DNA of 64,000 nucleotides, from the sequence record PV467748.1; one strand, written 5' to 3'. A model generated the notes under the pieces. That model made no database searches. It was not told where the DNA came from and saw only the letters and a program-made list of their open reading frames with translations. The DNA comes from a phage. A program made the position numbers and the translations under genes. This document shows, piece by piece, positions 25,811 to 43,215 of the stretch (within the stretch, counting starts at the first letter, position 1; every line of letters starts with the position of its first letter).

Positions 25811-26170
25811 TTAAAGATGGTCGAGTGCCGGGTTATGAGGCTTTTCTGCTTTAGCAGTATTTTTGTGCCAATCTGATTTAGAAACACGAATTGCATCCGC
25901 ACCGTAAGAGCTCTTAAGGAGGCCCTTTTTATTGTAAACACTTATAGAAGTAAGGGTGTCACCATTCCAAGTAGCATGGACGAAGTTGGATTTAGATTTA
26001 AGTTCTTTAGCCAGGCTCTGGTTGGTAGCCATGGAAGCAAAGTCTTTACCTGTAACTTTAAAAACTTCAGATGGGTTCAGCCCTTCTTTAGCCTTAGCCA
26101 ATTGTTCAGGAGACATAGCTTCGTTAATGCGCTGAGTAGATTCAGTAATAAATTGTTGGTAAGTTTTCAT
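25811..26170 (-). CDS. internal-protein-like gene with capsid-targeting sequence (CTS), 119 aa
   Basis: Track ORF starting MKTYQQFITE, matching the T4 internal-protein N-terminal CTS and prohead-protease site pattern [IL]-x-E. Confidence 0.6.
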   Translation of the reverse strand: MKTYQQFITESTQRINEAMSPEQLAKAKEGLNPSEVFKVTGKDFASMATNQSLAKELKSKSNFVHATWNGDTLTSISVYNKKGLLKSSYGADAIRVSKSDWHKNTAKAEKPHNPALDHL

Positions 26171-26711: not shown

Positions 26712-27308
26712 TTAATTACCACGGGCTGCATTAGCAACGGCGTAAGCGTACTGAACATTAGCGTCTTTAAACGTACCTTTAGAGGTATCTATTTCTGCCT
26801 TAAAGCCACCTTTAGCCATAACATCAGCAAATTCTTTACGGAAAGCCATTGCATCAAGACCTTTCCATGTTGATTTGTGCTTGGCAAATTCAAGACCGGC
26901 GAAGTTGACAGCCTTAGCCAATTTATTATCAATAGTCCATTTACCTGCTTTAGGTACAACTACCGGGCCTTTCTGTTTAGAGAACAGTTTTAAATTCCAG
27001 CGACGAAGGTCGCCGTCAGCTTTAACAAAAGCTGCGTCCAAGTTACTAGCAACAACATCCTGAATATGGCCAAATTTAAGCCCATCAGCTTCAATATTTA
27101 GGTCGTTACGCCAGCGAAGTCCTTCCCAGGCGAAAGCTTTAAAGTCAGAAGCTTTTGTAGCTAAGTACCGTTCAATAGGAGCTGTTTTAGCATCAAAACC
27201 GTTTCCTGGGCGATCAACGCCGTTTCCTCGGTAAGTCCACTCATCTTTATTAATGCCTTGGACCTTTCCTACAGAAGCTTCGGCGATAAATTCTTTATAC
27301 GTTTTCAT
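26712..27308 (-). CDS. internal-protein-like gene with CTS (198 aa; ipII position)
   Basis: Track ORF starting MKTYKEFIAE; lies between denV and e where T4 carries ipII/ipIII. Confidence 0.6.
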   Translation of the reverse strand: MKTYKEFIAEASVGKVQGINKDEWTYRGNGVDRPGNGFDAKTAPIERYLATKASDFKAFAWEGLRWRNDLNIEADGLKFGHIQDVVASNLDAAFVKADGDLRRWNLKLFSKQKGPVVVPKAGKWTIDNKLAKAVNFAGLEFAKHKSTWKGLDAMAFRKEFADVMAKGGFKAEIDTSKGTFKDANVQYAYAVANAARGN

Positions 27309-27390: not shown

Positions 27391-27789
27391 TTATTTGTAA
27401 GTTTTCATCCAATTCTTGAACAAAGCCGCGACGTCTTTCTCTTTAACGTTCAGTTTAACGTCCAGCATTTTGCCACCAGCGGCACGTGTCTGACGAATCT
27501 TAGCCGTACCGGTTTCGCCGTTCCACTCAACATAATACTGTCCGGTGTTCATAGCGATACCATCGCCATAGTCTTCATTTTTAGAAGTGGTGAATGCCAG
27601 CTTCATAGTCTTAGATACACGAGCCTGCATGCCTGACTGTAGAGCGTTACGAACGCGAATAACCTGAGGAGTGGCCTGGGTCAGGTTCTCGTTCAGTTCT
27701 TCGGTGAACTCTTCGGATTCGAACATCGCCAAAAGTTCTTTAGATGCAGGAACTACATTCTCTGCGATAAATTCATTATAAGTTTTCAT
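27391..27789 (-). CDS. internal-protein-like gene with CTS (132 aa; ipIII position)
   Basis: Track ORF starting [10 protein letters not shown]; ends ...KNWMKTYK*, a CTS-like remnant at the 3' end. Confidence 0.6.
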
Positions 27790-36062: not shown

Positions 36063-36617
36063 TCAGTTCTTGTAGAACCGGAATGGGTTTATGTGGAAGG
36101 CTAACATAGCCTTAGGGATTTTACGAGACAAAAGGCTCTTAAGCTTCCAACCACAGTACACGCGAAGGTAAAAGGTAATCCCACCAACCTTAAGATATGG
36201 AACTGAAGCAAATACACCCCAGGCGTCGTCATTCCACATCCATAACCACCCGTGATGAGCTTTATCAGGAGAACCGGATTCCACGTCGGGATTACCTCGA
36301 TAATGGAATTCCGAGCTACAATCACGACCGAGTTTATGGTAAGCAAAGTTATAAGCTTTATTTCGCCATAGCCAAGCTACTCTCTGAAGATAAACGCCGC
36401 CCGGCATTTTCCTGATGTTAGCCCAACGTTTAATATGACCTTTATCACCGTCAATTGGATTATCGTATGTCATCATCCAATCAAAGCCGTACGGTAATTT
36501 ACCTGTCTTTTTATTGTGGAAAGGAACCACAAATGGTGCAAGGATAACAGCCAGAACCATAGAGATAAAATCTAGTGGGACCAACAGAACCCAACTCAAA
36601 TATTTTAAAAGTTTCAT
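36063..36617 (-). CDS. membrane-anchored Trp-rich protein (~185 aa)
   Basis: Track ORF 36063..36722 trimmed to ATG (MKLLKYLSWVLLVPLDFISMVLAVILAPFVVPF...) downstream of the terminator at 36635. Confidence 0.45.
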   Translation of the reverse strand: MKLLKYLSWVLLVPLDFISMVLAVILAPFVVPFHNKKTGKLPYGFDWMMTYDNPIDGDKGHIKRWANIRKMPGGVYLQRVAWLWRNKAYNFAYHKLGRDCSSEFHYRGNPDVESGSPDKAHHGWLWMWNDDAWGVFASVPYLKVGGITFYLRVYCGWKLKSLLSRKIPKAMLAFHINPFRFYKN

Positions 36618-36634
36618 ATATTTCTCTAAGTTAA

Positions 36635-36656
36635 CCAAAAAGCCCCAGATGGGGCT
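36635..36656 (-). terminator. intrinsic terminator (AGCCCC-ATCT-GGGGCT then T5 on minus strand)
   Basis: Plus aaaaagccccagatggggct. Confidence 0.55.
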
Positions 36657-36660
36657 TTCG

Positions 36661-37125
36661 TTATTTGATTTGTTTAGCAGACCAGATACGGTCTTTGATG
36701 ATTTTCTGAATATCTTCAACATACTCTAAGTCGTGAGCATGCGGATTATCTTTGAAGCTATGTGCTCGTGCCAGTTTCTGGCCTTCTGTTTTGATTACTA
36801 AAAGCTCTTTAAGAATTGCTTCATACTTAGAAATAATTCCTTTGGCGATATTTTTTTCTTGAGCGGCTTTAGGGTCCGCTTTTGTCGCAGGTGCTTTACC
36901 TGTAGCTTTCTGGAACAATTCACCTGATGCAGCTAGGCTTTTAAAAACTCGGCTAACAGTATTAGCATTAGTAAAACCTTCGGCTTTAAAATCTTTAATA
37001 AAACGGAAACGTTCTTCATCAGAGGCGTCTTTGTAAGAATATTTACCTGCTTGAATTGCTGCAATAGCAGCGGCTTTTACATCTGAACTAGATTGTTCGG
37101 TCAAAAATTCATTGTAAGTTTTCAT
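36661..37125 (-). CDS. internal-protein-like gene with CTS (154 aa)
   Basis: Track ORF starting MKTYNEFLTE; first gene downstream of the tRNA locus. Confidence 0.55.
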   Translation of the reverse strand: MKTYNEFLTEQSSSDVKAAAIAAIQAGKYSYKDASDEERFRFIKDFKAEGFTNANTVSRVFKSLAASGELFQKATGKAPATKADPKAAQEKNIAKGIISKYEAILKELLVIKTEGQKLARAHSFKDNPHAHDLEYVEDIQKIIKDRIWSAKQIK

Positions 37126-37164
37126 TATTATTTCCTAAGTTAATTAACTTATCTATTTATTATG

Positions 37165-37194
37165 CCAAAAAGCCCCAACCTTTCGGAAGGGGCT
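37165..37194 (-). terminator. intrinsic terminator (AGCCCC...CCTTCCGAAAGG...GGGGCT then T5 on minus strand)
   Basis: Plus ccaaaaagccccaacctttcggaaggggct; same core as the terminator at 36029. Confidence 0.55.
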
Positions 37195-37243: not shown

Positions 37244-37335
37244 GTACGAAACGCCGGGATTCGAACCCGGTTATTAAGTAGTTGACGCTACTCAATATTT
37301 TTAAAAGGCCATATCTCGACCATATCCGAACGTTC
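37244..37335 (-). ncRNA. tRNA-like structured RNA (canonical T-arm and acceptor-like stem, overall too long for a standard tRNA)
   Basis: Minus-strand CCGGGTTCGAATCCCGG T-arm followed by CGTTTCG, with complementary CGGAACG about 85 nt upstream; could be a type-II tRNA or a T4-type small stable RNA. Confidence 0.3.
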
Positions 37336-37576
37336 CGTCAAAAACGCTACTCGGCTTACGGCAAAGATATTTCCTCGAATCGATAATTCTGTGCGCCGTT
37401 TCTGCTGTGATGTAAGGGGACGTTAACAGATCGTAAAGATTTGTTAATGCCAGTCCTTACTCAGGGAACATCAGTCCGACGACTTACCGGTAGCGACCCG
37501 GTTTCTTGTTTGTTGCGCCGGTGAATGCTGGTAATCAGTCTTCATACGACGGCTTGACTATATAATAGTCTTCATT

Positions 37577-37651
37577 TGGTATCCCGCCCTGGGATCGAAC
37601 CAGGACCGCAAACTTAGAAGGATCGTATGCTATCCATTACACCAGCGGGAC
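37577..37651 (-). tRNA. tRNA-Arg (anticodon UCU)
   Basis: Minus-strand GTCCCGCTGGTGTAATGGATAGCATACGATCCTTCTAAGTTTGCGGTCCTGGTTCGATCCCAGGCGGGATACCA; anticodon loop CTTCTAA; T-loop TTCGATC; encoded CCA. Confidence 0.65.
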
Positions 37652-37656
37652 GTAGT

Positions 37657-37733
37657 TGGTGACCCAGACCAGATTTGAACTGGTAACCTTTCCCTTATGA
37701 GGGGACTGCTGCTAACCATTGAGCTACAGGGCC
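37657..37733 (-). tRNA. tRNA with CAU anticodon (Ile-lysidine type or Met)
   Basis: Minus-strand GGCCCTGTAGCTCAATGGTTAGCAGCAGTCCCCTCATAAGGGAAAGGTTACCAGTTCAAATCTGGTCTGGGTCACCA; anticodon loop CTCATAA; T-arm ACCAG-TTCAAAT-CTGGT. Confidence 0.6.
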
Positions 37734-38582: not shown

Positions 38583-38984
38583 TTAACCCTCGTCTACAAT
38601 AGTATGGGTATTAGCATTAACAATCTGCCACCAGTCAAAACGATCGGAGCCGTAAAGAAACTTATTCTCGTTTTCTTTAACAATTTCACGTAGTTCATCT
38701 TCAGTGGCAGCTTTAGCGATTAAATCGGTATAGCCACCACGTGGATAGTAGTTATCACCCGCGAACAGAAGGAAATTTACTTTACCAGAAGGAACATATG
38801 CTTCCTTAGGATACTTGTTTCCTGCTTGGTCTACCACTTCAATATAACGGTAAGGAATATCAGTACTTTCAACCCATTGCCAAGCCGCAGCAGGGGATTC
38901 AAAAGCATCTACACCTAAACGGTTATCTTCATCTTTAGACGGATTATTTTCATAATCCGCATATACATAATATTCAACGTTCAT
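38583..38984 (-). CDS. hypothetical protein (133 aa)
   Basis: Track ORF. Confidence 0.45.
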   Translation of the reverse strand: MNVEYYVYADYENNPSKDEDNRLGVDAFESPAAAWQWVESTDIPYRYIEVVDQAGNKYPKEAYVPSGKVNFLLFAGDNYYPRGGYTDLIAKAATEDELREIVKENENKFLYGSDRFDWWQIVNANTHTIVDEG

Positions 38985-39237: not shown

Positions 39238-39510
39238 TTATTTTAAATAAATTGCATATTTTTTATAACCAGCTGTCTCGTGGCGCAGCCCTTTTTCATT
39301 AGCAAAACGTTCAATATTATTGATTTGATTCTGGTCAAGTTCTGACGTGTCAAATACAAAAAAGTTTCGCTTGTTGCCTAAAGTTACATGATTAGTCAAA
39401 TCGATGTTATAGAGATGATTTATATTATCAATCATGGTCTTAACAGATTTGTTAATTTTTGCTTCTTCATTAAGAATAGATTCAGCGATAAATTCTTGAT
39501 AAGTTTTCAT
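39238..39510 (-). CDS. internal-protein-like gene with CTS (~91 aa)
   Basis: Track ORF 39238..39555 trimmed to ATG giving MKTYQEFIAESILNEE.... Confidence 0.55.
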   Translation of the reverse strand: MKTYQEFIAESILNEEAKINKSVKTMIDNINHLYNIDLTNHVTLGNKRNFFVFDTSELDQNQINNIERFANEKGLRHETAGYKKYAIYLK

Positions 39511-39587: not shown

Positions 39588-40486
<899 letters not shown>

Positions 40487-43207: not shown

Positions 43208-43215
43208 TATAAATA
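43208..43215 (+). promoter_or_regulatory. late promoter TATAAATA for gene 53 and the baseplate operon
   Basis: Exact TATAAATA 27 nt upstream of the gp53 ATG. Confidence 0.7.

Follow-up and report, generated by a model that had tools for sequence, protein, structure and literature searches.

A candidate internal-protein gene behind a predicted late promoter, at a third locus of a T-even phage genome

The internal proteins (Ips) of T-even phages have been described from two loci, the 57B-ipI side and the e-ipIII-ipII-denV side (PMC12373910). The window analysed here, a stretch of 64,000 nucleotides of phage DNA (sequence record PV467748.1), holds an open reading frame of 154 codons at 36661-37125 that lies outside both loci, between rnaC and the DUF7338/e.8 region. 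This location is descriptive, not mechanistic, and differs from that of T4 IPII and IPIII in that the ORF is beside neither e/denV nor 57B. Does the ORF encode a further Ip, when would it be expressed, and what might its product do? Our reading, to which we assign a probability of about 0.75, is that its product belongs to the T-even Ip class, as a hitherto unnamed member encoded at a third locus.

The phage belongs to the genus Dhakavirus. In the 2 kb that surround the ORF, its sequence has 97% identity to two phages of that genus, UGJNEcP3 and UGJNEcP4, and matches JS98 at about 92% identity over only 54% of the query; all belong to the Straboviridae, Tevenvirinae. The gene order on the minus strand is that of T4, with gene 1, 57A, 57B, Ip genes, trna.x ORFs, tRNAs, stable RNAs and e.x-type ORFs. 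Two groups of RNA genes lie upstream of the ORF:

37577..37733, minus strand: two tRNA genes, Arg-TCT and a tRNA with CAT anticodon (ARAGORN and comparison with T4)
about 37245..37511, minus strand: homologs of rnaD and rnaC, two stable RNAs of T4, with about 95% identity to T4 L002:7909-8172

Among the T4 stable RNAs, rnaD is species 2 and rnaC species 1. In an Rfam scan of the upstream stable-RNA region no family detected the rnaD and rnaC homologs; JS98 has a shorter, rearranged version of this region. The CAT tRNA (37657-37733, minus strand), which ARAGORN calls Met, matches T4 tRNA-Ile without a difference along all 74 nt of the T4 gene and is therefore presumably a lysidine-modified Ile tRNA. 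The locus carries two tRNAs in this phage, eight in T4 and ten in slur03. Protein P0009, from one public contig of 2.9 kb, is chimeric across the locus (compared regions 38583-38984 and 36661-36745 of the window): a trna.3-like N-terminal part is fused, at KEN/PHAH, to the last 28 residues of the 154-aa protein, which implies that the tRNAs, rnaC/rnaD and the greater part of the Ip gene were lost in a natural deletion.

The ORF itself and its ribosome-binding site are as follows:

36661..37125, minus strand: coding sequence for a product of 154 aa and 17.2 kDa, a candidate internal protein in family phrog_2280
37132..37136, minus strand: Shine-Dalgarno AGGAA, separated from the ATG by 6 nt and seen in the sequence itself

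The frame runs from ATG to stop and its product begins with MKTYNEFLTE; its strand, on which the initial annotation was silent, was set in the present analysis. The Ala/Lys-rich body which that annotation described is evident in the composition, with 23 Ala and 22 Lys (29% Ala+Lys over 154 residues). The protein matches phrog_2280 over its full length (E 3e-53). By tblastn it is found in 511 phage records, in 470 of them at full length, with matches in Tequatrovirus (RB32/AR1 type), Mosigvirus and Dhakavirus; orthologs are 72-99% identical, and named relatives include RB32ORF133c, fD1 g140, KpnM6E1 gp123 and fHe-Yen9-01 gp153. Jiaodavirus and Tegunavirus have divergent relatives of which only the N-terminal half can be aligned, while the members from Klebsiella and Yersinia phages share the N-terminal domain and have a longer, much diverged C-terminal domain. 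An exhaustive HMM search of 1.8 billion representatives returned only ten proteins, all of them in phrog_2280 and labelled 'unknown function', and every source name is 'hypothetical'. An IMG/VR scan gave nothing beyond the same isolate genomes, and a literature search for RB32ORF133c or the family's N-terminal peptides found no paper. The gene is absent from T4 and from JS98, a member of the same genus, and its presence is polymorphic among related phages.

Searches of Pfam, NCBIfam and PDB sequences with the protein gave nothing above threshold, and an Rfam scan of the ORF gave no match. The lack of a Pfam or NCBIfam family and the uniformly 'hypothetical' annotations are what one could cite for a chance ORF or a decaying remnant instead of a functional gene. 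This explanation is effectively refuted by the full-length conservation in 470 phage records, by a strong synonymous excess and by the detection of peptides of the ortholog in phage fD1, and the combination of Shine-Dalgarno site, promoter and terminator likewise speaks against it. We regard the ORF as a real gene with near certainty. The codon comparisons with Tequatrovirus orthologs differ between its two halves: the C-terminal 70 codons show 23-26 synonymous and only 2-4 replacement differences, whereas the 72 compared N-terminal codons show 21-25 synonymous and 25-28 replacement differences. These counts indicate that the C-terminal domain is under strong purifying selection and that the N-terminal domain evolves fast between close genera.

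Membership in the Ip class hinges on the first ten residues:

37096..37125, minus strand: capsid targeting sequence (CTS)/propeptide MKTYNEFLTE, identified by motif and disordered in the AF2 model (pLDDT 42)

In T4 IPIII ten residues suffice for packaging, including that of foreign proteins (PMC9026906, a review of Black's work), and amber-suppressor analysis has assigned targeting to residues 4 and 7 and cleavage to residues 8 and 10 (PMC9026906). MKTYNEFLTE holds all four of these T4 CTS-defining residues, Y4 and F7 for targeting and L8 and E10 for cleavage by gp21. The gp21 processing motif is present as L8-T9-E10 followed by Gln, with a predicted cut after Glu10 (LTE/Q). Across the phrog_2280 alignment F7 and E10 are invariant and Y/F4 is nearly so, while the flanking residues vary, and the prefixes of distant members keep the CTS positions as well: MLKFNEFLAE (P0010), MISFNEFVDGNLITE (P0015), MLEYSEFLKE and MK-FKEFLAE. 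Tequatrovirus orthologs have two candidate gp21 sites (FLNE/AVLNE/A). The initial description of the ORF as IP-like with a CTS is thus supported by the published determinants and by the conservation of the same positions across the family.

A strict CTS motif finds five ORFs in the six-frame translation of the window, and a looser motif adds a sixth, at 25811-26170 (MKTYQQFITE); the initial count of six, of which the present ORF is one, is therefore right. About 0.002 such motifs would be expected by chance per six-frame translation, a rough estimate made from residue frequencies with no tool. The other five are:

39588-39797 and 39238-39510, minus strand: CTS ORFs beside 57B (motif search)
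27391-27789, 26712-27308 and 25811-26170, minus strand: CTS ORFs beside lysozyme e (motif search)

The ORF at 36661-37125 stands isolated from both the pair at 57B and the trio at lysozyme e. The product of 26712-27308 is 87% identical to T4 IPIII. The ORF at 25811-26170 (minus strand) encodes 119 aa, has Gln at position 6 of its prefix instead of Glu/Asp, and its product has no NCBIfam or Pfam match. BLASTP among the six CTS ORFs of the window and T4 IPI, IPII and IPIII left only the prefix in common. For the other five ORFs the similarity to the 154-aa protein ends within the first 10-34 residues, which agrees with the initial view that its body is unrelated to theirs, and the same limit of 10-34 residues holds against T4 IPI and IPIII. 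Homology to T4 IPII beyond the prefix was rejected as unproven (hhalign probability 18%, residues 1-44 only); hints that had once favoured such kinship were the strings 'HSF.D'/'YSYKD', a pairwise E of 4e-4 and a phrog_7857 match at E 7e-4, limited to residues 1-43. In Yersinia phage fHe-Yen9-01 (L007, 1200-3037) three CTS ORFs form a tandem array, gp156 (MKTYIEFINE), gp154 (MLQYNEFLKE) and gp153 (MLEYSEFLKE), and the last of these is the homolog of the present protein.

The AF2 model of the 154-aa protein (pLDDT 73) has a disordered prefix, a three-helix N-terminal domain (pLDDT 80-90), a linker and a long helical hairpin, and thus divides the body as follows:

36916..37095, minus strand: N-terminal domain, aa 11-70, three helices, motif AGKYSYKD..RF.F..D.K.EGF
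36874..36915, minus strand: Pro/Ala/Lys-rich linker, aa 71-84, with low pLDDT and no secondary structure, variable in length in the alignment
36664..36873, minus strand: C-terminal domain, aa 85-154, antiparallel helical hairpin with helices 85-121 and 130-151 (AF2)

Only the N-terminal domain can be recognised by sequence in the homologs from Klebsiella and Yersinia phages. The C-terminal hairpin gave only generic hairpin matches, and fold and sequence searches with the protein found no likeness to any inhibitor or other function. A pentatricopeptide repeat in the N-terminal domain was considered and rejected: the HMM match to P0016, a pentatricopeptide-repeat protein, is weak (E 1.8e-4) and the ORF has no reciprocal PPR match in Pfam, so that we treat the P0016 match as a helical-hairpin or compositional similarity.

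The timing of expression can be addressed through the sequence between the ORF and the RNA genes, where one element is of particular relevance:

37154..37161, minus strand: late-promoter box AATAAATA, which differs from TATAAATA by A(-13) and lies 29 nt upstream of the ATG, with a predicted start near 37148

Late transcription units of T4, which depend on gp55, gp33 and gp45, have a box of the TATAAATA type at -13 to -6 and need no -35 element. At T4 late promoters no departure from this box is more frequent than A(-13) (9 of 50 sites; PMC2988020, Geiduschek and Kassavetis). Enrichment of either octamer in the window was rejected, both being below shuffle expectation (AATAAATA occurs six times against 9.5 expected, TATAAATA five times against 8.0). 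The AATAAATA octamer is not enriched, and its significance therefore rests on position and comparison, not on frequency. All five TATAAATA boxes lie upstream of ORF starts on the same strand, four at 22-28 nt and one at 90 nt, and the genes so equipped include 53, 4 and e. Three of the six AATAAATA boxes are intergenic and stand 27-31 nt before an ORF start, namely those of gene 9, gene 49 and the present ORF; a fourth lies within gene 1, at a position where T4 has the canonical TATAAATA. The spacing between box and ATG at the present ORF matches that at genes 53, 4, e, 9 and 49 in the window. The low number of TATAAATA copies compared to shuffles, each copy preceding a same-strand ORF start, is consistent with selection against stray late promoters; the divergent boxes at 43208 (plus strand) and 43223 (minus strand) serve genes 53 and 4.

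Comparison with other phages gives a similar picture. At 11 of 12 other distinct homologous loci a [T/A]ATAAATA box starts 34-48 nt before the ATG, directly after a terminator; nine of these boxes are the canonical TATAAATA and two are AATAAATA. QL01 has the canonical box before a protein that is 99% identical. The only locus of the 12 without a box is that of fHe-Yen9-01, whose homolog directly follows another CTS gene. A sigma-70 promoter search upstream of the ORF found no good match, its sole match there being 9/12; the IPI-like and IPIII-like ORFs of the window do have TTTACA-type, sigma-70-type early promoters, and the present ORF apparently differs from them in having a late promoter only, behind a terminator. 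The A(-13) box, its genic spacing, the homologous boxes and the want of a good sigma-70 match thus bear out the initial proposal of a late-type rather than an early promoter, and the gene is very probably transcribed late. In JS98 a promoter at the same slot drives the DUF7338 gene instead, so the late promoter is not specific to the Ip gene; the alignments indicate that the late promoter after the rnaC terminator occupies a conserved slot and serves any gene that happens to follow first. The promoter region also varies by ATA units (ggTATAAATAg in JK1, ggcATAATAAATAg in the window, gcATAATAATAAATAg in mogra and gcATAATAATAATAAATAg in L012), a pattern that identifies slippage of ATA units as the route from T(-13) to A(-13) at 37154-37164 (minus strand) of the window.

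The gene is enclosed by terminators, and a leader sequence is repeated behind it:

37165..37194, minus strand: upstream intrinsic terminator, hairpin AGCCCC..GGGGCU then UUUUU, MFE -18.2 kcal/mol, z -2.6
36635..36660, minus strand: downstream intrinsic terminator directly after the stop codon, MFE -15.8 kcal/mol, z -3.85, none of 200 shuffles as stable
36618..36634, minus strand: second leader copy ttaacttagagaaatat, which precedes the DUF7338 gene and forms the far edge of the segment inserted as compared with JS98

The initial placement of the gene between a terminator and the tRNA locus is true as far as it goes and incomplete, as there are two terminators, and the rnaD/rnaC homologs lie between the tRNAs and the upstream one. 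The upstream terminator is conserved in T4, slur03, JK1 and JS98, and is predicted to end the tRNA/rnaD/rnaC unit and to shield the ORF from early and middle transcription. From this arrangement the ORF looks late-only, insulated from the early and middle tRNA transcripts. The leader of about 23 nt contains the Shine-Dalgarno site and is conserved, as ttaacttaggaaataataATG, in QL01, JS98 and mogra. The order of elements in the cassette is terminator, AATAAATA box, Shine-Dalgarno, ORF and terminator, and a 13-nt repeat, CCAAAAAGCCCCA (plus strand), is common to the upstream and downstream terminators.

These repeats provide insight into the mobility of the cassette. In T4, rnaC is followed by one terminator and then directly by the sequence that lies past the downstream terminator in RB32-type phages, and in slur03 and JK1 a 36-nt direct repeat of that terminator (92-94% identity) stands on either side of the cassette. 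In JS98, of the same genus as the present phage, terminator, TATAAATA, leader and ATGAAA run straight into the DUF7338 gene; compared with JS98, the window has an insertion of about 510 nt, comprising the ORF, a terminator and the second leader copy. As the comparison of these genomes shows at the sequence level, the gene is an accessory cassette, gained or lost by recombination between repeated terminator and leader sequences. The DUF7338 gene (36066-36617, minus strand; a membrane protein, Pfam E 6e-63) follows right after the cassette terminator in the window. It has lost its own promoter, no box being present there, and its transcription must therefore come from terminator read-through.

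Evidence for the presence of the protein in virions comes from Yersinia phage fD1. Its g140, 78% identical and at the same position, was scored as particle-associated by LC-MS/MS at the strict threshold in purified particles, as were g129 and g146, the two other CTS ORFs found in the 14-kb stretch of fD1 that was examined. The preparation was not clean: the label 'particle-associated' also went to 672 proteins of the host and to 113 of the 277 of the phage, DenV, lysozyme and NudE among them, and therefore the detection of g140 proves expression and co-purification, not encapsidation. The idea of packaging, already put forward in the initial annotation, would agree with the particle association of this ortholog, with the state of the preparation kept in mind. 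Could the product then be a late cytoplasmic protein that is never packaged, its CTS-like prefix a by-product of recombination in which Ip-type 5' ends and leaders serve as sites of cassette swaps? The repeated leader and terminator sequences that flank the cassette, a next gene that also starts with ATGAAA and a fD1 proteome too permissive to prove packaging would all suit this explanation. It has to contend with a prefix that keeps its four functional positions despite fully diverged DNA and different leaders, with the capacity of the ten T4 CTS residues alone to package foreign proteins, such that a late-made carrier would be expected in proheads, and with late-only expression, which suits a head component. 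We consider it quite improbable, and packaging and processing of the product, as predicted from its prefix, are probable.

Under the preferred Ip reading, the life of the protein would be as follows. After the tRNA/rnaC terminator, the gp55-type late promoter AATAAATA would start a short monocistronic mRNA near 37148, which would end at the terminator just past the stop codon; with this start and this end, the 17-kDa precursor would be made only late, at the time of prohead assembly. By the paradigm of T4 IPIII, MKTYNEFLTE would serve for capsid targeting by binding to the scaffolding core, and the prohead protease gp21 would cut the precursor after Glu10 (L-x-E/). Genes 21 and 22 belong to the T4 core genome (PMC9026906) and both lie outside the window; the phage is of the Tevenvirinae. 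Cleavage would leave a basic protein of 144 aa and 15.9 kDa (pI 9.5) free among the packaged DNA. By analogy with Ip1, Ip2 and Ip3, the mature protein would be injected with the DNA at infection, where it may disarm a first-response host defence, e.g. a modification-dependent nuclease of the GmrSD type.

This last step follows the known internal proteins. Work from 2022 to 2025 has shown all three T4 internal proteins to be injected inhibitors of high specificity: Ip1, Ip2 and Ip3 are unrelated in sequence, and each of them blocks a different enzyme of the GmrSD type (PMC12373910; PMC9391042). For Ip2 and Ip3, rescue has been done with the mature form expressed in trans. The authors of PMC12373910 predict the same inhibitor role for the many other Ip genes. 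No likeness of the 154-aa protein to any inhibitor was found, and the proposed function therefore rests on analogy; we put an anti-defence role at slightly less than an even chance. A structural or physicochemical role is an alternative for a packaged product: a Lys/Ala-rich, DNA-associated protein could neutralise charge or aid packaging or ejection and inhibit no defence. The predicted mature form is basic (net +7, pI 9.5, 31% Ala+Lys), lysines of internal proteins contact DNA phosphates in T4 by solid-state NMR (PMC3012670), and the predicted fold consists of simple helices with no recognisable binding site, all of which would be in line with such a role. We nevertheless think it unlikely, as the gene is dispensable and patchy, T4 and JS98 being without it, all three T4 Ips tested are specific anti-restriction proteins, and a fast-evolving N-terminal domain (25-28 replacement against 21-25 synonymous differences) suits an arms-race interface better than bulk neutralisation. 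The preferred reading of an injected Ip can be taken a step further, to a doubtful but conceivable scheme of a two-domain effector at a third, independently mobile Ip locus, in which the C-terminal hairpin would be a common module, e.g. for oligomerisation or DNA binding, and the N-terminal domain a specificity module that competes in an arms race against some host defence to which no Ip has so far been tied, either a new GmrSD subtype or a first-response system other than GmrSD.

The ORF and T4 IPII/IPIII (Ip2 and Ip3; phrog_7857 and phrog_5341) have several traits in common: a ten-residue CTS (MKTYQEFIAE in T4, MKTYNEFLTE in the present protein), a cleavage motif of the form L/I-x-E, a body that is small, basic and rich in Ala and Lys (pI 9.5-9.65, 28-32% Ala+Lys), and a non-essential gene that is polymorphic among T-even phages. 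The present protein differs from these two in lacking detectable homology beyond the prefix and in its two domains. With T4 IPI (Ip1), an injected GmrSD inhibitor, the ORF shares a CTS-type propeptide, here predicted to be cut by gp21, an accessory gene in a hypervariable region and, by analogy, a presumed injection with the DNA. By contrast, the T4 IPI propeptide has 19 residues and the mature fold consists of two beta sheets flanked by helices (PMC3012670), whereas the present product is predicted to be all-helical, and no sequence similarity between the two extends beyond seven residues. The cassette also resembles the morons of lambdoid phages, promoter-gene-terminator units: it is autonomous in that it carries both a promoter and a terminator, it lies between conserved genes, and some close relatives have it while others do not. 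Unlike morons, it has a phage late promoter and is not prophage-expressed, and its insertion and deletion proceed via repeated terminator and leader copies.

On the preferred reading, Ip genes also occur beyond the two classical loci, and one of their number seems to be expressed late only. Since the T4 Ips are specific inhibitors of GmrSD enzymes and the same role has been predicted for others, the CTS-bearing phrog_2280 family, widespread with its 511 phage records, may by analogy be a ready candidate for an anti-defence protein. Natural presence/absence pairs for comparisons of host range are at hand in this phage and JS98, and in RB32-type phages and T4.
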